Shown piece after piece: positions 2,111-52,445 of a stretch of 63,986 bases of DNA (its first letter is position 1; each line of letters begins with the position of its first letter). The notes beneath the pieces are model-generated. The model was not told the DNA's origin and did not search any database. It saw nothing but the letters and a program-made list of their open reading frames with translations. This DNA is from Microcaecilia unicolor (Eukaryota). Made by a program: the position numbers and the translations under genes. The stretch is taken from assembly GCF_901765095.1 (NCBI RefSeq), contig NC_044037.1, forward strand, positions 104,487,279-104,551,264. Reading direction: 5' to 3'.

Positions 2111-4753
2111 ATTCAATGCATACATGGATACTAACTATACCCTTATTTTTCAGGTTTTATACCCCCCTAACCCCCCCTGCAAAGCCGACCCAATGATCCG
2201 CCTCAGCCAACGCATCCCCATCCTAATACCCCCCCCCCCCAGAAGCCCTCCCCCCCCTTTCATCCATCCATAAACAAATAAACTGAATAAGTAGTCACCA
2301 GTCATGCAGGGCAATGTTGAACAAAAGGTTCCCATATCTTTTCCCATCTGGGCAATGTCACCGCTGTCAAATGTTCCATCTCACATATGTACCTCACCTT
2401 AGCAACCCACCCGCTCAGCGATGGGACACTGGGAGATTTCCAAAGCTTCGCCAAGTGTATTCGAGCAGCCTGCAAGGCCCCCCGCACCAGTAAAAATTGA
2501 GACCCTGTAACACCCACTGGCCTCTGTCCAAGCAAAAATACCGCAGGATGCCACTGTACAGGAATGCCCACCCAAGCCTGAATACGCGACTGAACAGCCC
2601 TCCAATAGGCCCTCGCCTTAGGACACAGCCACAAAATATGTACCATGGTTCCCAATTCTCCACATCCTCTCCAACACCGGGCAGACTCCGTATTAAACAT
2701 ATGGTGCAGTCTCACAGGAGTCAGGTACCATCGGTAAAAAACCTTAACCACATTCTCCTTCACAGCCACAGATAAAGAGGACTTCAAAAGCCCCCTCTCC
2801 AACCGCATCCAAGTCTCCTCCGATAAAGTAAAATCCAACTCCTTCTCCTAGTTTTTTCTGTGTAAAAGATAAGGTTTAAGGCGCTGGCTCAAATACCCAT
2901 ACAAGGAAGTGATCATCCCTCGGGTACTCCCGGAGGCAACACACAACTCTTCTAGAAGGTCAACATCCCTAAACAAACAAGCCCTATACATAGGACTCTG
3001 CAGAAAATGCTTCAGTTGTAAATAAGCATACTGATCTTGAGGCCGAAGACGAAAGCCCTCAACTAATGTCTCGAAAGAAACAAACACTCCTTCCTCACAA
3101 AGCTGCCCCCACATATTCAAGCCCAACTCCTCCCACCGCTGAAAAGTCGTCCTCTCCATCCCCAGCCCAAACAAAGGGTTATCTCCAATCGGCACTAGCC
3201 TAGATAAAAAGGGCTGACGTGCCGGGAACAGAAGATCCCAATAGTAAACAGTGGCGTGAACTACAGGTGGAAACCGTTCAACCCATCCTCTGTGCTTACT
3301 GGGAAGCCACATTAATTGCCCCAACCTACACGAACCTACCAGGGACTGTTCAATATGGACCCACAATTTATGATCCTCCTTCCAAAACTACTCTATGGCC
3401 GATGTAGCTTGAGCAGCACAGTAATACCAAAAAAGGTTAGGCACTCCCAACCCTCCATCTCGCCTACATTTATACAAAAAGGCTCTCGGTAAACGCGGAC
3501 GTTTTTGATTCCAAATAAAACTAATCAACCTGGCTTGCAGGCTAGATAAAAAGGACCTTGATAAACACAAAGGAAGAACCTGAAACAGATACAATAACCT
3601 AGGAAGAACATTCATTTTAAGCACAGCAATCCGCCCAAACCAAGAAAGACCAACAGCATTCCAACGGTCCAAATCGCTATGAATCGCCTTTTGAAGAGCC
3701 AGATAATTAACAGCGAATAACTCCAACAAATTCCAAGGAATCTGTACCCCTAAATATCTAAGATCTCGAGTAGACCATTTAAAGGCAAAAGATGTCCTCA
3801 ACGTCTCCTTTAATCCCGGTGGCACATGCACCGCCATACCAATAGACTTACTCATATTTAGCTTATAAGCAGACACCCCCGAGTATGCCTCAATTTCTTT
3901 CAGTAGGTTCAGAAGAGACACCAACGGACGAGTCAAAGACAGGAGAACATCATCTGCAAATAATGCAATCTTAAATTCCTTGCCTCCCTCTGTTACATCA
4001 GAAATATCCACACTCTCCCTGATAGCAGATGCCAAAGGTTCCATAGCTAGTGCAAAGAGAAGATAACGGACACCCCTGGTGAGTGCCCCTCTCCAAAGAA
4101 AAAACCCTCGAGTGGCCACCATTGATTTTCACACAAGCCTTAGGAGAAGTATAGAACGCCTTGATCCGTATTCTAAACAACGGTCCCACTCCAAATTTTT
4201 CCAAGACCTTACCAAGATATCCCCAATGAACCCTGTCAAAGGCCTTTTCAGCATCAAGACCCAACAGGACCATAGGCAGGCTCTTCTTTTGTGAGACATA
4301 AAGTAAATCCAAAGTTCTTCTAATGTTATCCATAGCCTGTCTCCCTGCCACAAACCCCACCTGATCAGGATGACTCAAAATAGGAAGCAACTTAGCCAAG
4401 CGATTAGCAAGCACCTTAGCCCAAATTTTAACATCCGTATTTAAGATGGAAATAGGACGTTATGATGAACATTCAGTTACATCTTTCTCCGGCTTCGGAA
4501 TGACAGCCAACCAGGCCTCCATCATGAATTTCGGCAAAAATGCACCTTCTCTCACCGAATTAATTACCAGTGTCAAGTATGGTGCCAACTCTCCTGCAAA
4601 GACCTTAAAAAACTCATTGGTAAATCCATCTAAACCTGGAACTTTACTCGTCGGTAATTCCTTAATAACCCCCAAAACCTCCTCCACTGTCACCGAGGTG
4701 TCCAACTCCCTCCTCTGTTGTTCAGTCAAGGCCGACAAACTTTGAGCGTTCAA

Positions 4754-9862: not shown

Positions 9863-10725
9863 ACTACTACTACTACAACTACTACAAATCATTTCTCTAG
9901 CGCTACCAGTCGTACGCAGCGCTTCACAATTGAACATGAAGAAAAGACAGTCCCTGCTCAAAAGAGCTTACAATCTAAATCAGGACAGACAGACAGGACA
10001 AATAAGGGATAAGGGAAGGACAGATAGATAGGACACATAGGGAAAAGGGACTATTGAAGAGAGGAAGACAAGATAAAGGTTATGAGCAGGTGACAGGTTA
10101 GGAATTGAAAGCAGCATCAAGCAGGTAGGCCTTTAGCCCGGATTTGAAGGCGGCCAGGGATGGAGCTTGACGTAATGGCTCAGGAAGTTTATTCCAGGCA
10201 TAAGGTGCGACGAGATAAAAGGAACGGAGTCTGGAGTTAGCGATGGAGGAGAAGGGTGCAATTAGGAGAGATTTGCCTAGTGAACGGAGTTCCTGGGAAG
10301 GAGTGTAGGGAAAGATGAGGGTGGAGAGGTAGTGAGGGGCAGCAGAGTGAATGCACTTATAGGTTAATAAGAGGAGCTTGAATTGTATACGCAAACGGAT
10401 AGGGAGCCAGTGAAGTGACTTCAGAAGAGGGCTGATATGGGCATAGCGACTTTGGCAAAATATTAATCGTGCAGCAGAATTTTGAACAGATTGAAGAGGA
10501 GAGAGATGGTTGAGTGGAAGACCTGTAAGAAGCAAGTGGTGAGAAACAGTAGTCCTACTACTACTACTACTACTATTTAGCATTTCTATAGCGCTACAAG
10601 GCGTACGCAGCGCTGCACAAACATAGAAGAAAGACAGTCCCTGCTCAAAGAGCTTACAATCTAATAGTCCAAGCAAGAGATGAGAGTGTGGATGAAGGTT
10701 CTGGTAGAGTGCTCAGAAACAATCA
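9863..10725 (-). mobile_element. Composite insertion of MIR-like (CORE-SINE/L2-3'-tail-related) repeat copies ending in (TAG)n tails. The body carries a conserved ORF-like segment (..SLHWLPIRLRIQFKLL..).
   Basis: The (TAC)n tract plus 'gacagtccctgctcaaa.gagcttacaatcta' (minus strand: tagattgtaagctc..gagcagggactgtc..(tag)n) occurs at 9863-9960 and again at 10555-10680. ORF 10098..10676 (minus) is homologous to ORF 40501..40842 (plus). Confidence 0.5.
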
Positions 10726-10910
10726 TCACTGGTCCTTACATCAGCCAGACTCTTATCAACAGCTAGGGGGGGGGGGGCCCTGTTCACAGCAAAAACCAGG
10801 AGTTTCTTTGACCAGGAAATATGGTTCTTTGCGCAGTATGTACTCACAGATGAGCTCTCAATTTTACTGACAGAAACTCCCTTTTTGATTAGGCTGTTCA
10901 GAGTTAAGGA

Positions 10911-11104
10911 AAAGGGTATGATACATACCTGTAGCAGGTGTTCTCCGAGGACAGCAGGCTGATTGTTCTCACGACTGGGTGACGTCCGCGGCAGCCCCCA
11001 CCAACCGGAAAGAAGCTTCGCGGGACGGTCGGCACGCAGGGCACGCCCACCGCGCATGCGCGGCCGTCTTCCCGCCCGTGCGCGACCGCTCCCGCCAGTT
11101 GAAT
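10911..11104. repeat. DIRS inverted terminal repeat (3' ITR relative to the minus-strand element).
   Basis: ~163 bp reverse-complementary to 16818-16982. The outer 31 bp are unique and complementary to the ICR. Confidence 0.85.
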
Positions 11105-11154
11105 GACTAGCAAAAGATGAAACACACAACTCCAAAGGGGAGGAGGGAAGGTAG

Positions 11155-11253
11155 GTGAGAACAATCAGCCTGCTGTCCTCGGAGAACACCTGCTACAGGT
11201 ATGTATCATACCCTTTCTCCGAGGACAAGCAGGCTGCTTGTTCTCACGACTGG
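11155..11253. repeat. DIRS internal complementary region (ICR).
   Basis: The left half is identical to the reverse complement of the outer end of the 10911 ITR. The right half is complementary to the outer end of the 16982 ITR. Confidence 0.8.
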
Positions 11254-11408
11254 GATATCCCTAGCTCTCAGGCTCACTCAAAACAAGAACCCAGGTCAAT
11301 GGAACCTCGCAACGGCGAGGAAACAACAGAAATTGACCTACGAAGAACAACTAACTGAGAGTGCAGCCTGACCAGAATAAATTCGGGTCCTGGAGGGTGG
11401 AGTTGGAT

Positions 11409-14282
11409 TTACACCCCAAACAGATTCTGCAGCACCGACTGCCCGAACCGACTGTCGCGTCGGGTATCCTGCTGGAGGCAGTAATGTGATGTGAATGTGT
11501 GGACAGATGACCACGTCGCAGCCTTGCAAATCTCTTCAATAGTGGCTGACTTCAAGTGGGCCACTGACGCTGCCATGGCTCTAACACTATGAGCCGTGAC
11601 ATGACCTTCAAGAGTCAGCCCAGCCTGGGCGTAAGTGAAGGAAATGCAATCTGCTAGCCAATTAGAGATGGTGCGTTTCCCGACAGCGACCCCTAGCCTG
11701 TTAGGGTCGAAAGAAATAAACAATTGGGCGGACTGTCTGTTGGGCTGTGTCCGCTCCAAGTAGAAGGCCAATGCTCTCTTGCAGTCCAATGTGTGCAACT
11801 GACGTTCAGCAGGGCGGGTATGCGGCCTGGGGAAGAAAGTTGGCAAGACAATTGACTGGTTAAGATGGAACTCCGACACCACCTTCGGCAGGAACTTTGG
11901 GTGGGTGCGGAGCACTACTCTGTTGTGATGAAATTTGGTATATGGAGCATGAGCTACTAGGGCTTGAAGCTCACTGACCCTACGAGCTGAAGTAACTGCC
12001 ACCAAGAAAATGACCTTCCAGGTCAAGTACTTCAGATGGCAGGTATTCAGTGGCTCAAAAGGAGGTTTCATCAGCTGGGTGAGGACGACGTTGAGATCCC
12101 ATGACACAGTAGGAGGCTTGATAGGGGGCTTTGACAAAAGCAGGCCTCTCATGAATCGAACGACTAAAGGCTCTCCAGAGATGGCTTTACCTTCCACACG
12201 ATAATGGTAAGCACTAATCGCACTAAGGTGATTCCTTACTGAGTTGGTCTTGAGGCCAGACTCTGATAAGTGCAGAAGGTATTCAAGCAGGTTCTGTGCA
12301 GGGCAAGAACGAGGTTCTAGGGCCTTGCTCTCACACCAAACGACAAACCTCCTCCACTTGAAAAAGTAACTCTTTTTAGTGGAATCCTTCCTAGAGGCAA
12401 GCAAGACCCGGGAGACACCCTCAGACAGACCCAACGCAGCGAAGTCTACGCCCTCAACATCCAGGCCGTGAGAGCCAGGGATTGAAGGTTGGGGTGCAGC
12501 AACGCTCCGTCGTTCTGCGAAATGAGAGTCGGAAAACACTCCAATCTCCACGGTTCTTCTGAGGACAACTCCAGAAGAAGAGGGAACCAGATCTGACGGG
12601 GCCAAAAGGGCGCTATCAGAATCATGGTGCCGCGGTCTTGCTTGAGCTTCAGTAAGGTCTTCCCCACCAAAGGTATGGGAGGATAAGCATACAGGAGGCC
12701 GGTCCCCCAATGAAGGAGAAAGGCATCTGACGCTAGCCTGCCGTGTGTCTGAAGTCTGGAACAGAACAGAGGCAGCTTGTGGTTGGTCTGAGAGGCGAAA
12801 AGATCCACCGAGGGGGTGCCCCACTCTCGGAAGATCTTGCGTACCACTCTGGAATGGAGCGACCACTCGTGCGGTTGCATGACTCTGCTCAGTCTGTCGG
12901 CCAGACTGTTGTTTACGCCTGCCAGGTATGTGGCTTGGAGGAGCATGCCGAACCGGCACGCCCAACGCCACATCCCGACGGCTTCCTGACACAGGGGGCG
13001 AGATCCGGTGCCCCCCTGCTTGTTGACGTAATACATTGCAACCTGATTGTCTGTCCGAATTTGGATAATTTGGTAGGACAGCCGATCTCTGAAAGCCTTC
13101 AGTGCGTTCCAGATCGCTCGGAGCTCCAGGAGGTTGATCTGTAGATCCTTTTCCTGGAGGGACCACAGACCCTGGGTGTGAAGCCCATCGACGTGAGCTC
13201 CCCACCCCAGGCGAGATGCATCCGTCGTCAGCACTTTCGAGGGCTGCGGAATTTGGAATGGACGTCCCAGGGTCAAATTGGTCCGGATGGTCCACCAGAG
13301 CAGTGAAGTGCGGCAACTGGTGGAGAGGCGGATGACATCTTCTAGATTCCCGGTGGCTTGGAACCACTGGGAAGCTAGGGTCCATTGAGCAGATCTCATG
13401 TGAAGACGAGCCATGGGAGTCACATGAACTGTGGAGGCCATATGACCCAGAAGTCTCAACATCTGCCGAGCTGTGACCTGCTGAGACGCTCTGGTCTGCG
13501 AAGCCAGGGCCAGGAGATTGGTGGCCCGCGCTTCGGGAAGGTAGGCCTGAGCCGTCTGGGTATTCAGCAGCGCTCCTATGAATTCCAGAGACTGGGATGG
13601 CTGGAGATGGGACTTTGGGTAATTTATCACAAACCCCAGCAGCTCCAGAAGTTGAATAGTGCACTGCATGGACCGGAGGGCTCCTGCCTCCGAGGTGTTC
13701 TTGACCAGCCAATCGTCGAGATATGGGAACACGTGCACTCCCAGCTTGCGTAGGTAGGCCGCTACCACCACGAGGCACTTGGTAAACACTCGTGGGGCAG
13801 AGGCGAGCCCAAAGGGCAGCACACAATACTGAAAGTGCCGTGCGCCCAGGCGGAATCTGAGATACTGTCTGTGAGCTGGCAGTATCGGTATGTGAGTATA
13901 TGCGTCCTTTAAATCCAGGGAACATAGCCAATCGTTTTTCTGAATCATTGGCAGAAGGGTGCCCAAGGAAAGCATCCTGAACTTTTCTTTGACCAGGAAT
14001 TTGTTCAGGCCTCTCAGGTCTAGGATGGGACGCATCCCCCCTGTTTTCTTTTCCACAAGGAAGTACCTGGAATAGAATCCCTGCCCTTCCTGCCCGGGTG
14101 GTACGGGCTCGACCGCATTGGCGCTGAGAAGGGCGGAGAGTTCCTCTGCAAGTACCTGCTTGTGATGGGAGCTGAAAGACTGAGCTCCCGGGGGACAATT
14201 TGGAGGCAGGGAGGCCAAATTCAGGGCGTATCCGCACCGCACTATTTGGAGAACCCACTGGTCGGAGGTTATGAGAGGCCAC
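11409..14282 (-). CDS. DIRS tyrosine recombinase ORF (957-aa open frame). The YR catalytic domain is in the C-terminal ~330 aa (~11409-12400). The N-terminal part overlaps the RT/RH ORF in another frame.
   Basis: C-terminal motifs ...ARRVSELQAL..., HSVRAMAASVA (HxxR) and SHYCL (catalytic Tyr region) are typical of lambda-integrase-like YR. Confidence 0.8.
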   Translation of the reverse strand: MASHNLRPVGSPNSAVRIRPEFGLPASKLSPGSSVFQLPSQAGTCRGTLRPSQRQCGRARTTRAGRAGILFQVLPCGKENRGDASHPRPERPEQIPGQRKVQDAFLGHPSANDSEKRLAMFPGFKGRIYSHTDTASSQTVSQIPPGRTALSVLCAALWARLCPTSVYQVPRGGSGLPTQAGSARVPISRRLAGQEHLGGRSPPVHAVHYSTSGAAGVCDKLPKVPSPAIPVSGIHRSAAEYPDGSGLPSRSAGHQSPGPGFADQSVSAGHSSADVETSGSYGLHSSCDSHGSSSHEICSMDPSFPVVPSHRESRRCHPPLHQLPHFTALVDHPDQFDPGTSIPNSAALESADDGCISPGVGSSRRWASHPGSVVPPGKGSTDQPPGAPSDLERTEGFQRSAVLPNYPNSDRQSGCNVLRQQAGGHRISPPVSGSRRDVALGVPVRHAPPSHIPGRRKQQSGRQTEQSHATARVVAPFQSGTQDLPRVGHPLGGSFRLSDQPQAASVLFQTSDTRQASVRCLSPSLGDRPPVCLSSHTFGGEDLTEAQARPRHHDSDSALLAPSDLVPSSSGVVLRRTVEIGVFSDSHFAERRSVAAPQPSIPGSHGLDVEGVDFAALGLSEGVSRVLLASRKDSTKKSYFFKWRRFVVWCESKALEPRSCPAQNLLEYLLHLSESGLKTNSVRNHLSAISAYHYRVEGKAISGEPLVVRFMRGLLLSKPPIKPPTVSWDLNVVLTQLMKPPFEPLNTCHLKYLTWKVIFLVAVTSARRVSELQALVAHAPYTKFHHNRVVLRTHPKFLPKVVSEFHLNQSIVLPTFFPRPHTRPAERQLHTLDCKRALAFYLERTQPNRQSAQLFISFDPNRLGVAVGKRTISNWLADCISFTYAQAGLTLEGHVTAHSVRAMAASVAHLKSATIEEICKAATWSSVHTFTSHYCLQQDTRRDSRFGQSVLQNLFGV

Positions 14283-14719
14283 CTTTGGTGAAAGAATTTT
14301 AACCTCCCTCCGACCGGCAGATCGTCCGGTACGGACACTTGTAGGGAGGCTATGTTCCCGTGGATCCAGTCAAAAGCCCGTCCCCGGCTTTTGCTGTGGA
14401 GGCGCAGGGGGCTGCTTAGGCGCACGCTGTTGACGAGAACGAGCGCGCTGGGGCTGTCCCTGTGCCTGACGAGGCCTTCGGGCCGGCTGGTTGTACCTAC
14501 GCTTCGCAAAAGAATAGGGTGCAGCCTGCCGGGCCCGGGAAAAACGTCCACCTGTGGAGGTGGATGCTGAAGGCGCCCGGTGGGAGAGCTTGTCGAGAGC
14601 GGTTTCCCGCTGATGCAGTTGGTCCACCATCTGCTCGACCTTCTCACCGAAAATGTTATCCCCCCGGCAAGGGACGTCAGCCAGTCTCTGCTGGGTGCGG
14701 TTGTCCAGGTCAGAGGCAC
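12446..14719 (-). CDS. DIRS reverse transcriptase / RNase H ORF (757 aa).
   Basis: RT YxDD motif (FPYLDDWLV). RNase H motifs TDASRLGWGA, LELRAI, TDN, NSLADRLSR. DIRS/Ngaro-type C-terminal motif PSVDLFASQTNHKLPLF...LIAPFWPRQIW. Confidence 0.85.
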   Translation of the reverse strand: MPLTWTTAPSRDWLTSLAGGITFSVRRSSRWWTNCISGKPLSTSSPTGRLQHPPPQVDVFPGPGRLHPILLRSVGTTSRPEGLVRHRDSPSALVLVNSVRLSSPLRLHSKSRGRAFDWIHGNIASLQVSVPDDLPVGGRLKFFHQRWPLITSDQWVLQIVRCGYALNLASLPPNCPPGAQSFSSHHKQVLAEELSALLSANAVEPVPPGQEGQGFYSRYFLVEKKTGGMRPILDLRGLNKFLVKEKFRMLSLGTLLPMIQKNDWLCSLDLKDAYTHIPILPAHRQYLRFRLGARHFQYCVLPFGLASAPRVFTKCLVVVAAYLRKLGVHVFPYLDDWLVKNTSEAGALRSMQCTIQLLELLGFVINYPKSHLQPSQSLEFIGALLNTQTAQAYLPEARATNLLALASQTRASQQVTARQMLRLLGHMASTVHVTPMARLHMRSAQWTLASQWFQATGNLEDVIRLSTSCRTSLLWWTIRTNLTLGRPFQIPQPSKVLTTDASRLGWGAHVDGLHTQGLWSLQEKDLQINLLELRAIWNALKAFRDRLSYQIIQIRTDNQVAMYYVNKQGGTGSRPLCQEAVGMWRWACRFGMLLQATYLAGVNNSLADRLSRVMQPHEWSLHSRVVRKIFREWGTPSVDLFASQTNHKLPLFCSRLQTHGRLASDAFLLHWGTGLLYAYPPIPLVGKTLLKLKQDRGTMILIAPFWPRQIWFPLLLELSSEEPWRLECFPTLISQNDGALLHPNLQSLALTAWMLRA

Positions 14720-16592
14720 GCAGCCATGAGAGCCTGCGCATCACTATACCTTGGGCCGCAGCACGAGATGCCACGTCACAGGTGTCAAAAATACCCCTGG
14801 ACAGGAACTTTCTGCACGCCTTCAGCTGCCTGACCACCTCCTGATAAGGCCTGGACTGCTCCGGCGGGAGCTTCTCGACCAGGTCCGCCAGTTGTTGCAC
14901 ATAGGTCCGCATGTGAATGCTCATATAGAGCAGGTATGACTGGATGCGGGTCACGAGCATGGAGGATTGGTAGGCCTTCCTCCCAAACGAGTCCAGAGTG
15001 CGAGACTCCCGCCCCGGGGGCGCCGAGGCGGTATCCCTGGAACTCCGTGCCCTCTTGAGAGCAGAATCCACGACCGCTGAGTCATGGGGCAATTGGGGCC
15101 GCATGAGCTCTGGGTCAGAGTGGATCCTGTACTGGGACTCTGCTTTCTTGGGAATGGTGGGGTTAGTTAATGGTCGCACCCAGTTCCGGAGCAGCGTCTC
15201 CTTCAGGACATTGTGCAGCGGTACCGTGGAGGACTCTCTAGGTGGTGATGGATAGTCGAGGACCTCGAGCATCTCGGCCCTCGGCTCTTCCACAGAGACC
15301 ACGGGGAAGGGAATGCTGATAGACATATCCCGCACAAAGGAGGCAAAGGAGAGACTCTCAGGAGGTGAGAGCTTCCTCTCCGGTGAAGGCGTGGGGTCCG
15401 AGGGAAGGCCCGTAGACTCCTCTGAGGAGAAATATCTAGGGTCCTCCTCTTCCCCCCACGAGTCCTCATCCTCGGTATCGGACATTAGCTCATGTAGCTG
15501 AGTCCTGTACCGGGCCCGGCTCGACGTCGAGGCACCGAGCTCTCGGTGTCGTCGAGCGGTGGACTCCCGCGCCGGCGGGGACGGAGCTCCCTCCATCGAC
15601 GTCGACGGGGACTCCACCTGCGTGGCGGTCGAGACCGGCACCGCAAGCGGCGGCGGTGTCGACAGCCCCGGCGCCGGGCTAGAGCTCGCCGGCGCCACAG
15701 TCATCGGCGCCGAGGGCGCAAGCACCCCCGGCGCCGGCACAGCCTGGCGCATCAGCCCTTCCAGGATCCCCGGAAGGATGGCTCTGAGGCACTCGTCCAG
15801 GCCCGCTGCCGGGAAAGGCGGTGGGGCCGGTAAGGGTGTCGGTGCCGGAAGCTGCTGGGGGCCAGGAGACGGCACCGAGGTGCCGGAACCCCGACGCGTC
15901 GGTACCTCCACAACCGACGGAGACCTCTCCTCACGACGATGACGCTTCGGCGTCGTCTCCTCTCCAACATCGGGATGCACCGAAGGCGACCGGTGACGAC
16001 GCTTCTTGTCTTTCTTCCGATGCACGTCACCGGCGCCGGAGGGCATGGAGGAGGAGGAGGTCGATCCCCCTCGGTCTCGAGGTACCGGGTCAGACAGGGT
16101 TCGGTCTCGCGGCCCACGAGCTGAGGGCGTGACCGGGGCCGACTGCCCACGCGGCCTCTCACCCCCACTCTCACCGGAAGACCGGCGGGCCGACGGGACC
16201 TGTTCTCCTGGGGTCGCTGCCATCGGTGCCGATGTCTCGGGCATCGATACCGGTACCGAAGGGCCGGGCGTCGATACCGATGCCTTCGAGGTCGACGTCG
16301 AGGGGCCGGCGCAAGTTCCAAAAAGACGGTCCCGCAGAACTTGCCTCGCAACCTGGGTCCGTTTCCGGAGACCGAGACACAAAGAACACGACTTGAGATT
16401 GTGCTCCGGCCCGAGGCACTGGAGGCACCAAGCGTGGGTGTCGGTCTGCGAGATCGGCCGGCCGCAGCGACCACACTTTTTAAATCCACTCGGGACCTTC
16501 GAGGACATCGACGGAAAAATCGCGTCGGCGAAGTCAAAGTCGTCAATGGTGGCTAAAATCACACCACGAAAAACAAACGACCGAGCGGCCAC
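14370..16592 (-). CDS. DIRS gag-like ORF1 (740 aa; Pro/Ser/Arg-rich; Cys-rich N-terminus).
   Basis: First long ORF downstream of the 5' ITR on the minus strand. It sits in the position of DIRS ORF1. Confidence 0.6.
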   Translation of the reverse strand: MAARSFVFRGVILATIDDFDFADAIFPSMSSKVPSGFKKCGRCGRPISQTDTHAWCLQCLGPEHNLKSCSLCLGLRKRTQVARQVLRDRLFGTCAGPSTSTSKASVSTPGPSVPVSMPETSAPMAATPGEQVPSARRSSGESGGERPRGQSAPVTPSARGPRDRTLSDPVPRDRGGSTSSSSMPSGAGDVHRKKDKKRRHRSPSVHPDVGEETTPKRHRREERSPSVVEVPTRRGSGTSVPSPGPQQLPAPTPLPAPPPFPAAGLDECLRAILPGILEGLMRQAVPAPGVLAPSAPMTVAPASSSPAPGLSTPPPLAVPVSTATQVESPSTSMEGAPSPPARESTARRHRELGASTSSRARYRTQLHELMSDTEDEDSWGEEEDPRYFSSEESTGLPSDPTPSPERKLSPPESLSFASFVRDMSISIPFPVVSVEEPRAEMLEVLDYPSPPRESSTVPLHNVLKETLLRNWVRPLTNPTIPKKAESQYRIHSDPELMRPQLPHDSAVVDSALKRARSSRDTASAPPGRESRTLDSFGRKAYQSSMLVTRIQSYLLYMSIHMRTYVQQLADLVEKLPPEQSRPYQEVVRQLKACRKFLSRGIFDTCDVASRAAAQGIVMRRLSWLRASDLDNRTQQRLADVPCRGDNIFGEKVEQMVDQLHQRETALDKLSHRAPSASTSTGGRFSRARQAAPYSFAKRRYNQPARRPRQAQGQPQRARSRQQRAPKQPPAPPQQKPGTGF

Positions 16593-16817
16593 TAGGCCGC
16601 AATGTGGCGTCCCCGCTGGAAGCGAGGGAAAAAAGGGAGCGCGTGTCCCACACGCGCAGGGTTTCTTTTTTCTTTTTTTTTTTTTAAAAGGAAACCGGGC
16701 GGTAACTAAAACCGATAAACAAAGTTAGAAAAAAACACGATCAGCGTATACGCGATCGAACGATCCGGCGGCTGAACAGAGAGAGCGCAAAACACGACTC
16801 TCTCCAGGCGCGGAAAA

Positions 16818-16982
16818 AAAGGAACTGGCGGGAGCGGTCGCGCACGGGCGGGAAGACGGCCGCGCATGCGCGGTGGGCGTGCCCTGCGTGCCGACCGTCC
16901 CGCGAAGCTTCTTTCCGGTTGGTGGGGGCTGCCGCGGACGTCACCCAGTCGTGAGAACAAGCAGCCTGCTTGTCCTCGGAGA
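16818..16982. repeat. DIRS inverted terminal repeat (5' ITR relative to the minus-strand element).
   Basis: Reverse complement of 10942-11104. Confidence 0.85.
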
Positions 16983-17782
16983 AATTACAGAATACTTGAG
17001 AATTTCTCTATTTAGGCAAAGAAGCCATACTGTGGGAATGTGGTCACATGTTTCCCAGTCCAGATGGCCAATCTGAACTCGAAACAGGCTCCACCTCCCC
17101 CTTCACATACCAAATTAATTAGAACTGTGTCTTATCTTCTATATTCCATACAAACAGAATTATTTCTAATCAAAATACAGACCTCGAGTGCACTTGTCGT
17201 TCATGGCAGAGTTGAAAAACAGACCTCAAGTGCACTTGTCGTTCAAGGCAGAGTTGAAAAACAATCTTTAAAATTCATTTCTAATACACTCCCTCCCACA
17301 TACCTTTAAAAGAGCAGATCTTTGCCAGCAGCAAGCAGTGTGATTGATTCACGTTGTGGGGCTGGCATAAGCAGTGTGTATCAGTCATGCTGCTCACTGC
17401 CAGCAAACATCTGCTCTTTAAAAAGTACATGGTGGGGGGGAAGGGTGTTGAAGGACTGGATTGCCGGCAGAGTGGATGGGTGGGGGGCGGGGGGGTGGTG
17501 AAGGACTGGATTGCCTGCGGGCAGAAGAGGGAGAGACCAGCTCACCTGTGGGGTGGGATTCTTCTGCCTACCCAACTTGGGCACAGGCCCACCCAAAATT
17601 GTTTGTCTGGCTATGCCCTTAGTCAGTGCTAGCAGTCAATGCAGGCCTTCCTCAACCTGCCATCTCCAACTGTCTTGCTGTCAAATTTGTGAGTTCTTTG
17701 TACCAAATGGAGCACTGCTGAGTGCGAGGAAACGCACCCTGACTCTGCTTGGCAGCCGAGCAACCCCGAGGTTCACCTGCGG

Positions 17783-18405
17783 CAGGGGCGTTTCTGCGTG
17801 GGGCCACAGGGGCCTGGGCCCCCGCAGATTTCGCCCTGGCCCCCCTCCTGCCGCCAACCCTCCCCCACTAATGTTGTTTACCTTTGCTGGCGGGGGACCC
17901 CAACCCCCGCCAGCCGCCGAGGTCTTCAAAGTTCTTGTTCGTCGTCCTCCGTGGCCATGCTGTACCCTGTTGATTTGGAGTCTGTCTGACGTCGCACCAC
18001 GTTGTACGTGCGTACAACGTGGTGCGACGTCAGACAGACTCCGAATCAGCAGCGTACAACATGGCCACGGAGGAGGACGACGAACAAGAACTTTGAAGAC
18101 CTCGGCGGCTGGCGGGGGTTGTGGTCCCCGCCAGCTGAAGAATTACTTTTAAAAGCAGGCGGAAACGGACCTCAGCTGGCGGGGGTTGGGGTCCCCGCCA
18201 GCAAAGGTAAACAACGTCAGCGGGGGAGGGTTGGCGGCGGGAGAGGAGGTGGAGAGAGTCGTTGGTGGCAGGGGGGGCTCTGGTAATGGCGGGGGGGGGA
18301 GTCGTTGGTGGCAGGGGGGGCTCTGGCAATGGCGGGGGGGGACTAAATGTGCCCCCTCCCTCTGGCCCTGGCCCCCCCTACTGCCAGAGTCCAGATACGC
18401 CCCTG
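17783..18405. mobile_element. hAT-like foldback MITE (CAGGGGCG../..CGCCCCTG family) containing a long internal palindrome (17940-18080).
   Basis: Termini caggggcgtttctgcgtggggccacagg.../...cagatacgcccctg. Perfect 8-bp TSD ACCTGCGG at 17775-17782 and 18406-18413. The whole element is near-palindromic. Confidence 0.8.
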
Positions 18406-19257
18406 ACCTGCGGTGACCGCCATTCCCCAGGGGTTGAGCCCCCAGGTGTGGGCGTGTAATGGAAGATTTAAAGGATTGCTTTTCAACCCTGCTTTGATCA
18501 ATAATGAACTCTGAAATCTTCTGTCTTTGACCGAAAGTAACTTTTCTTGTAAATACAAAAACAAGTTGGAATGCAGAAGATATGACATAGCTCTAATTAA
18601 TTTGTTATGTGAAGGGAACGATGGAGCTTGTTTTCGGGTTCAGACTGGCCATCTGGACTAGGAAACATGTGACCACGTTCCCACAGTATGGCTTGTTTAC
18701 CTAGACAGAGAAGCATTCTGTAATTTTCCTTAGCTCTGAACATGAGTTCTGAGCCTAATAAAAAGGGGAGTTTCTTTCAGTGAAATTGGGAGCTCATCCG
18801 TGAGTAACGTACGTACTGCACAGAGGATCTGCTCCTGGTCTAAAATGCTCCTGGCTTTCGCTGTAACGGGCCCCCCCAGCTGATGATAAGAGCCTGGATG
18901 ATGTAAGGACCAGTGATGTTGTATGTATGTATTATTGCTTCTTTTCCTGGTCTAAGAGCTCTTAGCATTGCTTAGATGTAGAGACCAATGATGTAATGAT
19001 TGTTTAGCTAATCATTGTGTTTATATAGCTAATCATTGTATATACCTTAATCATTGTAGAATTTAGCACCTCTAATAAAGGTTTCATTTATCTAATACGA
19101 ATCCAAAAGAATCCACAGTAATTATTGAGTAGTCTGTGTCAGTGAGACAGGCTGTAAATCCAAAGCAGTACAGGGTGGCAGACAGGACTTATGTAGAGAG
19201 AAAATGAGAGGGGCGCTGAGGAAACCAGCTGGAGGAGAGTACAAGGGAGTGGCCCAG

Positions 19258-21491: not shown

Positions 21492-21841
21492 CAGTGGCGT
21501 AGCCACAGGTGGGCTTGGGTGGGCCAGGGCCCACCCATTTATGGCTCGGGCCCACCCAACAGTAGCACATGTTTAGTGGTAACTAGTGGGAATCCCAAGC
21601 TCTGCCAGCTGAAGATTTCCCCCTGATGGTAACGAACATGCTACTCTCCACAACACCGGCACCTGTGCATGCTCAGTTTTCAGTGCATGCTTGCTGCCAA
21701 GGTGAAAAGAAGCGTTTTCCCACTGGCTGAGATAATTTTTTTTGGAGGGGGGGAGAACACTTGGTGCCCACCCAATTCTTGCCCAGGCCCACCCAAAATC
21801 TGTTGTCTGGCTACGCCCCTGATCCTAAAGCAAAAAAATAA
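21492..21841. mobile_element. hAT-like foldback MITE (CAGTGGCGTAGCC family) nested in element A.
   Basis: Termini cagtggcgtagccacagg.../...tggctacgcccctg. Perfect 8-bp TSD ATCCTAAA (21484-21491 and 21842-21849). Confidence 0.8.
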
Positions 21842-21849
21842 AAATATAT

Positions 21850-22980
21850 ATTTTATTTACAGTTTGTTGTCTCTGGTTTCTGCTTTCCTCATCTTCTTTT
21901 CACTGTCTTCCTTCCATCCAGCATCTGTCTTCGGTCTCTCTTTGCCATCCAATTTCTGCCCTCTCTCCCTGCCCCTTACATCCACCATCTGCCCCTGTCT
22001 GCCCTCTCTCTCTCCCCCTTCCATTCACTGTCTACCCTTTCTATCCCTTCCATCCACTGTCTGTCCTTTCTCTCTGCCCCTTCAATCCACCATTTGCCCT
22101 CCCTCTCCCATCCATCCAGGGTCTGCCCTCCCTCTCGCTCCCCCTTCCATCCAGGATCTGCCCCTCCCTCTCTGCCCCTTTTTTTCAGCCCCCAGTTCCA
22201 GCCCCACTATCCCACCAGTCCCCCGTTTCAGCCCCAGCCCTTTTCTCCCACCAGTCTCGAGCTTCAGCCCCCAGCCACTTCTCCCTGTCCCCTTTTCAGC
22301 ACCCAGTTTCAACCCCAGCCCTTTTCTCTCATCAGTCCCAAGCTTCAGCCCCAGCCACTTCTGTCTCCTTTTCAGCCCCCAGTCCCCACACTTTCAGCCC
22401 CTGCCCCTTTTCAGCCTCCAGTCCCAGTACTAGCCCCCTTATCCCACCTACCCTCCTTTTCAGCCCCCAGTTCCAGCCCCCTTCATCCACATGCCTTGTA
22501 TTAGGGCCCCCCTTTTCAGCCCCAGAACCATTCTCCCACCTGACCCATGCATGCCCCATTTTCCCACCAGCCCCAGGCATGGCCCCCATTCTCCCATATG
22601 GCCCCTTCTCAGACCCCAGTTCCAGCCCCCTTCTCCCATCTGGGAGCCCCCTCCCCTCCTCCCATTCAAGAACCTCCTCGCCTCCCCACCCCAGTCCCTT
22701 CTGCCATCCGAGAACCCTCTCCCCACCCCACCCCCCTTCTCCCATCCCCCTTCCCACCCTAGTCCTCTTCTCCCATCCGAGAACCACCTCCCCACCCCAG
22801 TCCCCTTCTCCCATCCAAGAACCCCAGTCCCCTCCCCACCCCACCCATCCCCTGCTCCCATCCAAGAACCCCCTCCCCTCCCCCAGTCCCCTTCAACCAT
22901 CCGAGAACCCCCATCCCACACCCTTCTCCCATCTGAGTCCCCCCCCCCGACCTGACCCACCTACCAGCTCCGTTCTCCTG
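21850..22980. repeat. CT-rich low-complexity / degenerate tandem block (ccc-ttc-cat-cca motifs). The ORFs here are compositional artefacts.
   Basis: Strong pyrimidine bias on the plus strand. Similar composition at 61760-62800, which also follows a MITE end. Confidence 0.6.
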
Positions 22981-24102
22981 CCACCACCCTCACTGCCTTT
23001 TAAAAAAAAATTTGCGAAGTGCCGGAGTGGCAGGCAGCGCCTCGAGTCTGCCCTGCTAGTAAAAATCTCCTCGACGTTGTCAGGCCTTCCCACATTGAGT
23101 CCCGCCCGCCCTCGCGGTAATAGGAAGTTACCTCAGAGGAGGGCTGGACTCAATGTGGGAAGGCCCGACAACGTCGAGGAGATTTTTACTAGCAGGGCAG
23201 ATGCGAGGCACTGCCTGCCACTCCAGCGCTTGACAAATTTTTTAAAAAAGGCAGGACAGGGTGGGAGCAGCGGAGGGAGGGGGGACTGGAGCTCGGGTGG
23301 TCGGGGCGGGGCGACTTCAGGCGCGCCGCGCAGGACCCCCTTGAGCGCGAGGCCCTATGCGGTCGCCTCGCCCTAAGACCGGCCCTGACCACAGCAGCAG
23401 CCACTCGACCCAGAGGATAAGGAGCATACCAGTTGGGAGTCAGCGACAGACAAAGACTCATTCTGACCAATTTTCAGTAAAGGTAAGTGCACTATTTATT
23501 TGTGCACAGCACCTCTGTAACATCCCCCACCCCCTCTCCCCCAGCACAAACCCCCCTCCTGCTGCACATACAACCCCACCCCTGCAAATACAGACTCACC
23601 CCCTCTCCCCAGCACACACCACCACAGCATGGCAATTAGGTGACTCACAGTTCTCCCCCTCCCCAACCCCTCTGGGAACCACTTCTCCCACCCTGTCCCC
23701 GACCTGCTGGCAATGGCCCAGGCCTTGCAGGAGCAGAAATTGTGTCAGAGTTCTCCTCTCTGGGGCTTCCACTGTCCTCACAGTCATCAGTCCGTCCTGC
23801 CGCCTCTGTTGTAACCTGGAAATCTAGTCACCTGATTGGCCAGGTGGTTGATGTGCTGCTGGGCCCAGCAAACAGGAAGGGAGCTTGCACCAGCTCTGCA
23901 CCTATATGAGAAGTCAATACAAATGTGGTATAGATTAGAGAATGACATGGGGACAGGGAACCGCAGCAGGGTATTCAACAGGGGTTGGGTCTAGACCATT
24001 AATGAAGTTTTCTGTGTCCATGTTGTTCTGAGGTAGGGTTTTGCGTAGGTTTATGATTTTTTCATTGAAATATTTAGCAAGGCTGTCTGCAGATGCGATG
24101 TC

Positions 24103-35600: not shown

Positions 35601-36289
35601 TTTTTTCCTTCTGTGGATTACAACAAAGATCATTTTAGTAACCAGCACATAAGTACAAGCACCCTTTTTAACCCCTCCCTCTTCCTTGCCAAGCAGAGGC
35701 GTAGCCACGGGCGGGCCTGGATGAGCCCAGGCCCAGCCACTTTCCCTCCAGACCCACCCATCCAACATCCTTCGCTTGCTGTCACTGCTTTTTCTCCCGT
35801 GGCTCCGGGTATGGCCGTCCAGGAGGCAGTGTTCAGCGTTGCCTGCCTACCTGCCCTGAAATAATTCTTCTCCCCAGGCTCCGCTGCCTCGGTCCCTACA
35901 TTTTCTTTTTCGCCCGTCGCGCAGCGCTGACATTCACACAGGCAGCTCCGCTCTCCCCTATCGCGTCCATCTGGCCCTACGTAAACAGGAAGTGCATCAG
36001 AGAGGGCTGGATGGATGTGGCAAAGGGGAGCGGAGCTACCTGTGTGAATGGCAGCGCTGTGCAACGGGCAAAAAAGAGAATACAGGGACAGAGGCAGCAG
36101 AGCCTGGGGAGAAGAAGAATTTCAGGGCAGGTAGGCAGGCAATGATGAATGCTGCCTTCCGGACGGACATACCCGGAGCCACTGGAGAAAAGGCAGCGAC
36201 AGCGAGCGAAGGATGTTGGATGGGCGGGCCTGGAGGGCAGAACTAAAGTAAGTGCTGGACCCTTGGGGGGGGAGGACGGGGGGGGGGGC

Positions 36290-36960
36290 TGGAGGGAAGG
36301 GATAGATTTGTCGGACTTGTGGGAGGAAGGGGATTGGAGGGAAGGGAGAGACTTACTGAATGTGGGAGGAAGAGAAAGGAGGGGATCTGAATGGAAGGGA
36401 GAGATTTGCTGGAGGTGGGAGGAAAAGGAGGAGGGGATGGATGGAAGGGAGAGAGCTGTTGGACACATTGGAGCCAACTCTGTGGGTGCTGTGGGTGCTT
36501 GAGAGCCCCAATATTGAGAAAATTCCTTGTATGTGTCCAGGGAGGGGTTATTTTCATTGGGCTTAGCACCCCCAATAATTTTGAAAAGTTGGCTCCTATG
36601 GCTGGACATGGGAGGGAGAGGAGGAAGGGGCTGGAGAGCTGCTGGTCAAGGGAGGAAGAAGGGACTGGAGGGAAGGGAGAGAGCTACTGGACATGGGAGA
36701 AAGAGGAGGAAGGGACTGGAGGGAAGGGAGAGAGCTGCTGGACATGGGAGGAAGAGGAGGAGGGGATCTGGGTGGAAGGGAGAGAGCTGCTGGACATGGG
36801 AGGAAGAGAAGGAGGGGACTGGGTGGAAGGGAGAGAGCTGCTGGATGTGGGAGGAGGTGGCTGGAGAGAATGAGCTGCTGGATGTGGGAGTAAGAGGAGG
36901 AGGGGATCTGGATGGAAGGGAGAGAGCTGCTGGACGTGGGAGGAAGAGGGGGAACAGAAC
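36290..36960. repeat. Minisatellite, ~51-bp unit x ~10 (gggactggagggaagggagagagctgctggacatgggaggaagaggagga), within a 1.3-kb purine-rich block (36150-37460).
   Basis: Directly visible tandem units. The overlapping ORFs (36391..36873, 36527..37075, minus-strand ORFs) are repeat artefacts. Confidence 0.7.
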
Positions 36961-37999
36961 TGGCGGGAAGGGAGAACTGCTGGTACAGCACAAGGAGGGA
37001 GGGAAGGAAGGGAAACAGAGATACCAGACCAAGGACATGAAGGAAAAGGGAACAAATACTAAACCTACAGTGTGAGGGAGGGAGGAAGGGAGGGTGGGGT
37101 GGGTGGCTGGGCAGGCAGAGAATCAAACAACCAAACCAGATGCTGGAAAGGGGAGGGAGTGAGAGGGAGAGAAGCTGGACGGGGTAGGGTCAGAGAGGGT
37201 AGAGATATAATGGCACTGGGGACAAAGCGGGTGGAGAAGCTGGACAGAGAAATATAGGGACGCAGAGAAAGGGAGATACTAAACATGGAGGAAGATAGAG
37301 GTACAGAGATGAAAGAAGATGGATAGTGAACATGGAGAGAGAGTAGAAATATCAAATGGACATGAAACCTTGGTGAGTGAGTTAAGAGAAGACAGAAGGA
37401 TGTAGAAACCAGAGCCTGGGACCAACATGACTTGGAAAAAATAAAATGAGCAGACAACAAAAGGTAGAAAAAAGAATTTTATTTTTCTATTTTGTGACTA
37501 GAATATGTCAGATTTTAAATGTACATCCTGCCAGAGCTGGTATTAGAATATGGCTGGGGCCCACGGCAGATATTTAGGAGGGGACGCCAAAGCTTACTAA
37601 CAGGCTGCACCTTCTTCAGCTTCCAGCTGGCCTGGGGGTTCTCTCTGGCCAGGGGGCCAAACGCAGTTGCCCTAGTTGTACCTCCCCTAACACTGTCTCT
37701 TGCATGTGCTATCATATTTTGCACAGTATAGGAGAAAATGCATCTCTTTGTATTTCTCTGTGCTGTGCTAAATGCAAGGTCTGGCCTCTTGGGATTTTGA
37801 TTTAATTTGTTTATGGTTTGTGGTCACTTATTCTGTATTTGGCATTTGTGTTCTGTGTGTGTGACCGAAGTATTCTGTTTGCATCAATTTTCTATGTAGT
37901 ATTCTATAGTACTTTGGCTTGTTCAGTTTTCTTGATGTATTGATATTTTAGGGCCCCACTGTAATATTTAGGGCATATTTGGGGGAAGCATATGTGTGT

Positions 38000-52319: not shown

Positions 52320-52445
52320 ACTCGAGCTAATACTACTACTACTACTACTACTTGACATTTCTAAAGCGCTACTAGGGTTATGCAGCGCTGTACAATTTAA
52401 CATAGAAGGACAGTCCCTGCTCAAAGGAGTTTACAATCTAAAGGA
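52320..52445 (-). repeat. Isolated MIR-like SINE 3' tail with a (TAC)n/(GTA)n microsatellite. It is fused on its left to a truncated palindromic MITE (52253-52330).
   Basis: (tac)8 + ttgacatttctaaagcgctactagggttatgcagcgctgtacaa..gacagtccctgctcaaaggagtttacaatcta matches 9863-9960 and 10555-10680. Confidence 0.45.

Follow-up and report, generated by a model that had tools for sequence, protein, structure and literature searches.

A 63,986-nt stretch of the Microcaecilia unicolor genome (contig NC_044037.1, forward-strand positions 104,487,279 to 104,551,264; here called the window, with positions counted from its first letter) holds three long, mutually overlapping open reading frames (ORFs) on its minus strand, enclosed by inverted repeats. 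Does this segment represent a complete retrotransposon, and, if so, how would a reverse transcriptase and a recombinase be made from frames that overlap so extensively? Our analysis indicates, with a probability that we put at roughly 0.93, that the segment is a structurally complete copy of a vertebrate DIRS1-like (tyrosine-recombinase) retrotransposon, inserted on the minus strand within an older host repeat. The whole element occupies positions 10911-16984 (6074 bp), and its boundaries are set by its repeat geometry together with a paralogous empty site. A preliminary description of the same DNA had proposed a structurally complete DIRS-like retrotransposon, and this proposal is borne out by the inverted terminal repeats (ITRs), the right extension (rE), the bipartite internal complementary region (ICR), the 3-bp junction and the full set of coding domains described below; the element end that it placed at 16982 had to be moved, to 16984.

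The repeat geometry was examined by aligning the two ends with each other and with the ICR. Positions 10941-11100 pair with the reverse complement of 16823-16983 at 160/161 nt (blastn E = 4e-76), the differences being one mismatch at 10962 and one 1-nt indel. The left (5′) terminus with its ITR (16823-16984; minus strand, as are all features of the element) consists of a conserved inner part (16823-16960) and a divergent outer part (16961-16984) that exactly matches the left half of the ICR, and the right (3′) ITR (10941-11100) is likewise divided into a conserved part (10963-11100) and a divergent part (10941-10962) that exactly matches the right half of the ICR. The two conserved inner parts are identical over all 138 nt. 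The terminal 30 nt of the element (10911-10940) form the rE, defined as in PMC3266345, which has no counterpart in the other ITR and occurs as its complement in the ICR; the preliminary description had recognized both the absence and the presence of this segment, and only its length, given as 31 bp, was wrong. Within the ICR, the last 62 nt of the element (10911-10972) are matched in reverse complement by the right half (11155-11216; 62/62, E = 3e-26), and the first 41 nt (16944-16984) by the left half (11214-11254; 41/41, E = 9e-15). The halves abut and overlap on the TTT at 11214-11216, which corresponds to the 3-bp circular junction, and in element orientation the ICR thus reads as the reverse complement of the 3′ end joined to the 5′ end. 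A 10-nt core (TTGTTCTCAC / GTGAGAACAA; direct-repeat families D3 and D8) is common to both ITRs and both ICR halves, and a core of this type, of at least 10 nt, has been described for such elements (PMC3266345). This geometry is real and lies far beyond chance. The earlier claim that both ITRs and the ICR are present, with the complements of the two outer ends juxtaposed in the latter, therefore holds on alignment, with amended limits: the arms that were given as 10911-11104 and 16818-16982 run from 10941 to 11100 and from 16823 to 16983, and the ICR that was given as 11155-11253 ends at 11254. Two noncoding stretches complete the element, a spacer from the stop of the tyrosine recombinase (YR) frame to the ICR (11255-11408) and a 5′ untranslated region from the left ITR to the gag ATG (16509-16822), which holds an A/T-rich run.

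The insertion site was analyzed by joining the two flanks of the element and searching the joined sequence against the window. Host repeat sequence surrounds the element (10719-10910 and 16985-17148), and the joined flanks match an uninterrupted, inverted paralogue of this repeat, about 1.6 kb away at 18567-18922 (minus strand, outside the element), with 78% identity over 375 nt spanning the junction. This proxy for the empty site reads ...GTTCAGAGCTAAGGA-AAA-TTACAGAATG... (AAGGA-AAA-TTACAG), with a single AAA where the element sits, and the occupied site reads ...GTTCAGAGTTAAGGA|AAA[element]AAA|TTACAGAATA... (AAGGA|AAA...AAA|TTACAG). In element orientation TTT is found at both ends, and one of the two trinucleotides is that of the target. 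Judged from the 78%-identical paralogue, there is no target duplication other than this AAA/TTT trinucleotide. We expect the pre-insertion allele to read ...TTAAGGAAAATTACAG..., with a single AAA. In the recombination model for DIRS elements (PMC3266345, PMC7192593), the 3-bp junction crosses over with the same trinucleotide in the genome, and the single AAA of the paralogue would fit such recombinase-mediated integration without target duplication. The paralogue alignment also fixes where the element begins and ends without recourse to the ICR.

The three minus-strand ORFs lie at 14370-16592 (740 aa), 12446-14719 (757 aa) and 11409-14282 (957 aa). They had been reported as long and intact, and their coordinates and openness stand; the lengths, however, rest on non-ATG (GTG) starts under a bacterial ORF rule. 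Counted from its ATG at 16508, the gag-like ORF1 (14370-16508, with a TGA stop at 14370-14372) encodes 712 aa. It carries a LAP2alpha-like domain (PF11560, E = 1.1e-5, residues 531-657 of the 740-aa ORF), which fits the reported origin of the mammalian LAP2alpha domain from a DIRS1 gag (PMC4495291). In the gag region, identity is 23-28% with the corresponding parts of three related loci (L001-L003) and 25-28% with turtle and newt proteins; the upstream ORFs of 10 metagenome-derived relatives gave no match to the LAP2alpha domain, and for these the label gag is positional only. Residues 1-25 of the 712-aa protein (16432-16506) hold a Cys/His-rich motif, C-x2-C ... H-x-W-C-x2-C ... H, which is kept in Pleurodeles gag-pol proteins (42% identity over 26 residues) and may be a zinc-binding module.

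The pol reading frame (12446-14740, stop-free from 14740, with its stop at 12446-12448) is in the +1 frame relative to gag. It encodes a reverse transcriptase domain (13574-14056; RVT_1, E = 1.7e-18, pol residues 222-382) with a YLDD motif whose residues Y333, D335 and D336 are invariant in the homologue alignment, an RNase H domain (12884-13234; RT_RNaseH, E = 6e-4) with D500, E532, D557 and D608, and, in its last 146 aa, a methyltransferase-like (MT) domain (12449-12886). The pol C-terminus of the window copy gave no methyltransferase Pfam match, and the assignment was settled by a fold search, which returned a methyltransferase fold; PF05869 (Dam) matched weakly at this C-terminus in 13 of 32 homologues. 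The recombinase itself (11409-12431, stop at 11409-11411) comprises a core-binding SAM-like domain and a catalytic domain, of which the N-terminal SAM-like domain is the sole above-threshold Pfam match in a plain scan (31.8 vs 27 bits). The catalytic residues R181, K213, H311, R314, W337 and Y347 are intact and are conserved in 30-34 of 34 sequences. The closest relatives of pol are turtle and newt proteins (46-51% identical) and those of YR are coelacanth, newt, tortoise and caecilian proteins (49-55% identical, 55% being the maximum in the database). Because its best protein matches are no closer than this, we regard the element as a distinct family of a known clade.

Several observations weigh against this identification. 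The empty site is a 78%-identical paralogue and not the true pre-insertion allele; the LAP2alpha match of gag barely passes (25.5 vs 25 bits); and, for the window copy, RNase H falls below the Pfam cut-off (20.3 vs 24.8 bits) and the Phage_integrase catalytic domain is sub-threshold in the plain scan (E = 0.12). A search of the PDB with the single YR sequence was similarly weak (E = 0.035). Of the three enzymatic domains that the preliminary description had named, the reverse transcriptase was thus recovered outright, whereas the other two emerge at the level of the family: RNase H was matched in 32/32 aligned homologues, with the D-E-D-D columns invariant or nearly so, and a profile of 34 YR homologues matches Cre (5e-12), on which the predicted YR model (predicted local distance difference test score, pLDDT, 86.7) superposes over its whole length (E = 5.6e-10, template-modelling score 0.61-0.74). 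Features of Ty3/Gypsy elements with long terminal repeats (direct terminal repeats, a 4-6 bp target duplication, a protease and a DDE integrase) were not found: the repeats are inverted, there is no such duplication, and no Pfam match to rve (DDE integrase) or RVP (protease) was obtained in any of the element ORFs. Every structural feature predicted by the DIRS1 model was found (ITRs, rE, bipartite ICR, 3-bp junction, TTT ends and, at the paralogous empty site, no target-site duplication), and the DIRS-like interpretation is therefore supported.

The arrangement of the reading frames raises the second part of our question. A single TGA (14370-14372; context GGC TTT TGA CTG) divides gag from the YR ORF, the two being read in one frame, and pol lies in the +1 frame. 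Past this TGA, frame 0 stays open for 986 codons, of which the first 640 overlap pol and the last ~340 encode the recombinase. The overlapping part, which we call X (12449-14369), is stop-free over its 640 codons and has no Pfam match. The preliminary description had called the 957-aa ORF YR-containing, and the recombinase does lie within it; that its first ~590 codons overlap pol had gone unremarked, as had the missing pol start codon, the +1 position of pol and the methyltransferase-like domain after RNase H. In total the YR ORF overlaps pol by 1921 nt, and such a long overlap is known from about half of the described DIRS1-like elements. The first ATG in the YR frame, at 13925, would give a product of 838 aa. 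No ATG precedes the reverse transcriptase domain in the pol frame, and conserved pol sequence begins ~50 nt past the gag stop.

The openness of the frames was assessed by shuffling synonymous codons 5000 times, keeping the pol protein and its codon usage. Across pol, the gag/YR frame contains 0 stops, vs 18.7 +/- 3.5 expected, and 0/5000 shuffles gave a count of 0; the other alternative frame contains 37 stops, vs 33.5 expected. Frame 0 is likewise free of stops between the gag stop codon and the first ATG, where 4.8 were expected in the window element, 12.9 in L002 and 7.3 in L003. Upstream of the gag stop, the openness of the pol frame across the 371-nt gag/pol overlap is what chance would give (0 stops vs 1.04 expected), so that no argument for coding upstream of the stop can be drawn from the length of that overlap.

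We then asked how widely this layout is shared. L002 and L003 were fetched by protein identity and are near full length, with ~45-47% pol identity; a pol-alignment scan of metagenome contigs gave 80 further loci, and 77 loci with both pol and YR matches were assessed. The full layout was defined as a long upstream ORF (in some cases ended by the contig edge), one stop, a frame open for ~1.9-2.2 kb across pol into YR, and pol in +1. It is present in L002 and L003 and in 42 of the 77 related loci, these 42 sharing 31-46% pol identity with the window element; the others mostly have pol in +1 and a ~2-kb overlap, with extra upstream stops or truncation. The separating stop in the 42 loci is TGA in 33, TAG in 9 and TAA in none, and C is the next base after 20 of the 33 TGA codons. 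Summed over these loci, ~1055 stops would be expected in frame 0 across pol, and there are 0. The distance from the separating stop to the first in-frame ATG ranges from 7 to 404 codons, the stretch before that ATG being stop-free beyond chance; pol homology starts 10-157 nt past the stop (median 52); and 18 of the 42 elements, the window one included, lack any pol ATG. Over 12 related pairs, which are not independent, identity at four-fold synonymous sites is 0.411 in the overlap (n = 2870), 0.330 in YR and 0.293 in gag.

Other layouts were met with in the same survey. Pol and YR form one continuous ORF of ~3.0-3.1 kb, with no overlap arrangement, in two metagenome-derived loci (L054 2766-5807 and L078 786-3881), and overlaps are short in two more (L060 and L058); therefore more than one expression layout exists within the group. 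Some public gene models are in fact parts of DIRS elements. One of them, P0001 (LOC122174245; L001 4001-7105, Chrysemys picta CM062323.1), is a single ORF that fuses gag and pol in a degenerate DIRS copy. Two others bear names that suggest errors of annotation or chimeric gene models: a Pelodiscus protein annotated as 'DNA repair protein RAD51 homolog 2 isoform X1' (P0003) aligns with DIRS pol at 47% identity over 82% of the query, and an Anolis protein annotated as 'inositol hexakisphosphate kinase 3 isoform X1' (P0133) aligns with DIRS YR at 46% identity over 94% of the query.

These observations lead us to propose a model for the expression of the element. We predict that the gag stop (GGC UUU UGA C) is a recoding site, at or near which a +1 ribosomal frameshift would yield gag-pol, and that ribosomes reading through the leaky TGA or TAG would make gag-X-YR, in which X, the ~640-codon frame overprinted on pol, would be held open by selection. 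On the evidence of frames and codons, we offer it as a tentative possibility, short of probable, that pol is made by +1 frameshifting and YR by readthrough, both at this single stop. The broader form of the model, a clade-wide three-way switch at one leaky gag stop in which termination would give gag, a +1 shift gag-pol and readthrough gag-X-YR, is rather doubtful.

Each half of the scheme has precedents elsewhere. The retroviral gag stop of murine leukaemia virus is read through at UAG-G, and stop-codon-stimulated +1 frameshifting occurs at the antizyme UCC-UGA, at the bacterial prfB CUU-UGA-C and in yeast Ty1/Ty3. As in these cases, gag of the DIRS1-like loci ends at a stop of the leaky type (TGA or TAG, never TAA) and the downstream products lie in frame 0 and in +1; unlike them, the loci show no conserved shift heptamer or downstream structure, and the comparison is purely inferential. 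In the UUU UGA C of the window element, re-pairing of tRNA-Phe in the +1 frame would be perfect; the stop context of L003 is prfB-like (CUU UGA C), and several loci have an antizyme-like UCC UGA. No precedent is known to us for a single stop codon that serves at once for a +1 shift and for readthrough into an overprinted frame of 640 codons.

A number of findings speak against recoding. No slippery motif before the stop is conserved in the 42 loci, whose last sense codons vary (CAA 9, TCC 5, CCC 4, AGA 4, AAG 4, TTT 3), and RNA structure downstream of the stop gives no clear signal (mean z -1.03, control windows -0.6 to -0.98); in the window element, a single modest hairpin (z = -1.9) lies there. 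The 42 loci are not all independent, and one turtle relative (P0001, locus L001) carries gag and pol fused in one ORF. That relative is probably a mutated copy, because its YR is frameshifted and its gag interrupted. Finally, the gag/YR layout may already have been described: no statement of the in-frame gag/YR arrangement, of the stop-codon bias or of a mechanism was found in the literature covered, which did not extend to the primary DIRS reviews.

The alternative that survives best accepts the element as identified and has pol and YR made by other means, namely internal or non-AUG initiation, termination-reinitiation, spliced or subgenomic mRNA, or a -1 shift from the end of pol into YR. 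We consider this possible, if on the unlikely side. It gains from the same two absences, of a universal shift motif before the stop and of a clear stimulatory structure after it, and from a literature that, as far as it was covered, does not address the mechanism of DIRS expression. Start codons for it are at hand, since 24 of the 42 related elements do have an in-frame ATG upstream of the pol homology and every element has frame-0 ATGs, but the positions of these ATGs are unconserved in either frame, and frame 0 is open from the stop codon itself, upstream of any ATG. Moreover, a 2-kb open frame would not be needed if YR were reached by splicing or by a -1 shift where pol ends, and the fact that the separating stop is never TAA (0/42) likewise counts against this alternative. 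As a route to YR, a -1 slippery heptamer at the end of pol was sought and rejected: in-phase heptamers of this kind are absent from the window element and not enriched at the pol ends of the loci (8/42, against 0.12 in control windows).

A second alternative holds that the copy is a dead or non-autonomous relic, in which the frame difference between gag and pol and the missing pol ATG arose by frameshift mutation and the third ORF is an accident of GC-richness. It is very improbable. Although pol indeed lacks an ATG and is out of frame with gag, the same arrangement recurs in the 42 of 77 elements at just 31-46% pol identity. The GC content of the element (58%) does lower the frequency of stop codons, but the shuffled sequences with unchanged codon usage still predict 18.7 stops in the overlap where there are none, and the other alternative frame is no emptier than expected. 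The turtle relative that has gag and pol in one continuous ORF (1034 aa) counts in favour of this alternative, but it is itself degenerate. The window copy retains every invariant residue of the family and every catalytic residue.

The features that argue for an intact element bear as well on its age. No difference is found at any of 241 paired repeat positions (138 in the ITRs and 62 + 41 between the ICR and the termini). The ratio of observed to expected CpG is 0.81 in the element, reaching 1.40 over element positions 1-393, vs 0.29-0.46 in the flanks and the surrounding window. Perfect repeats, open ORFs and high CpG would be consistent with recent insertion into a genome that is depleted of CpG and presumably methylated, and the copy is probably young. 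As to activity, a point on the other side is that no further copy of the element is found in the 64-kb window (blastn and tblastn, element vs window); the suggestion in the preliminary description that the element is recently active or still competent is plausible, with indirect support from these sequence features. That host selection (domestication) or gene conversion has instead preserved an old insertion is scarcely credible, for although mammals have co-opted a DIRS1 gag on at least two occasions (PMC4495291) and gene conversion could in principle maintain ITR/ICR identity, domestication keeps a coding region and not the ITRs, ICR and 30-nt extension that are all perfect here, all three ORFs and their overlap are intact, and the CpG contrast with the flanks speaks against great age.

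As a complete and probably young DIRS1-like copy, the element can be compared closely with described ones. The termini of DIRS1-like elements have been characterized as a divergent outer ITR constrained by its own ICR, a conserved inner ITR, an rE and two ICRs overlapping on a 3-bp junction (PMC3266345). In Table 3 of that study, AcDIRS2 of Anolis carolinensis has a divergent ITR of 26 nt, a conserved ITR of 136, an rE of 28, ICRs of 39-60, TTT/TGT ends with an AAA junction and a length of 5997 bp, and XtDIRS3 of Xenopus tropicalis has values of 11, 123, 34 and 41-65, TTT/TTT with AAA, and 6196 bp. The window element, at 22, 138, 30 and 41-62, TTT/TTT with AAA, and 6074 bp, falls inside the published range for vertebrate DIRS1-like elements. 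AcDIRS2 and XtDIRS3 both have the long ORF overlap (PMC3266345), and TTT termini and a LAP2alpha-like gag are found in all Xenopus DIRS-like families (PMC9210276). The element thus resembles the vertebrate DIRS1-like elements (AcDIRS2, XtDIRS2, XtDIRS3, a Tetraodon element and Xenopus DIRS-37_XT) in its size of ~6 kb, its TTT ends and AAA junction, its two-part ITRs, ~30-nt rE and ICR halves of ~40 and ~60 nt, and its gene order of gag, reverse transcriptase/RNase H/MT and YR with a long ORF overlap and a LAP2alpha-like gag; it differs from them in sequence, at the best protein identities given above for pol (46-51%) and YR (49-55%).

With the founding member, DIRS-1 of Dictyostelium discoideum, it shares unequal ITRs, overlapping pol and YR ORFs, a methyltransferase-like domain and an ICR just inside the right repeat that is complementary to both ends (33 + 55 nt in DIRS-1, 41 + 62 nt here). 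DIRS-1 is smaller, at 4.8 kb with ~330 bp repeats compared with 6.1 kb and 160-nt ITRs, and the gags of the two are unrelated, the LAP2alpha-like gag being known from vertebrate DIRS1-like elements (PMC9210276, PMC4495291). In contrast to DIRS-1, there is no evidence of the window element inserting into its own copies. Ngaro, PAT-like and VIPER elements likewise combine reverse transcriptase/RNase H with a tyrosine recombinase and have no protease or DDE integrase and no target-site duplication. However, they carry split direct repeats (A1 ... B1 A2 B2) where the window element has ITRs and an ICR, and Ngaro and VIPER are without the methyltransferase domain that it possesses (PMC3266345, PMC9210276). 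No split direct repeats pairing both ends were found in the window element; of its direct-repeat families only D3, D8 and D10 reach a terminus, and what they match there, over 20-27 nt, are copies in the interior or in the ICR.

By the model established for DIRS-1 (the Cappello model), transposition of the element would begin with reverse transcription of a transcript that lacks the outer ends. The missing ends would be rebuilt by annealing of the terminal fragments to the ICR, giving a closed junction, and second-strand synthesis would then produce a double-stranded circle. A Cre-like recombinase would integrate this circle by crossover of the 3-bp junction with an identical genomic trinucleotide (TTT/AAA). 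The ICR has been shown experimentally to be essential for DIRS-1 in Dictyostelium (PMC7192593).

The remainder of the window contains further repeats. Just past the 5′ flank of the element, 17842-18246 holds nested inverted repeats, one with 77-nt arms that are 90% complementary across a 2-nt spacer and one with 58-nt arms at 98%, and tandem arrays of 42-43-nt repeats were found at 17173-17263 and 18256-18341. A repeat of ~115 nt that starts with a CTA microsatellite is present in three copies (84-86% identity), at 9864-9978, 10555-10664 and 52331-52441; it may be a SINE-like (short interspersed) element. Fragments of reverse transcriptase ORFs from other retroelements are present at 53043-53876 (plus strand; RVT_1, E = 1.2e-32) and 3388-4122 (minus strand; E = 3.2e-6), the former, from a long interspersed element (LINE), being 65-70% identical to many turtle proteins named 'reverse transcriptase domain-containing'. 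From sequence alone, this fragment is the strongest pointer to the host lineage, which would be that of a vertebrate, probably a non-mammalian tetrapod or some other sarcopterygian. Degenerate tandem arrays occupy 21995-22923 (C-rich, GC skew -0.40) and 36328-37205 (G-rich, GC skew +0.47). The ATG-initiated ORFs at 21669-22433, 22579-23376 and 35977-36609 are probably not genes, because they lie within these low-complexity tandem tracts and have no Pfam match. No Rfam matches were found in the 64-kb window.

Together, these data identify an ordinary but unusually clean full-length member of the DIRS1-like elements, whose sequence family is new and whose kind is known. Conceptually the element itself offers nothing new, its geometry being a textbook confirmation of the ITR/ICR model. 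For the genome from which it comes, it provides repeat annotation with a clean reference copy of full length, precisely bounded and accompanied by a proxy for the empty site, and it marks a DIRS1-like family that has probably been mobile recently. The deeply conserved layout, in which gag is followed by TGA or TAG and a 2-kb open frame runs across pol into YR with pol in +1, may be the one lead worth following, as it gives the 'long ORF overlap' of DIRS1-like elements, long noted but unexplained, the form of a testable hypothesis on how these elements would make their reverse transcriptase and their recombinase.

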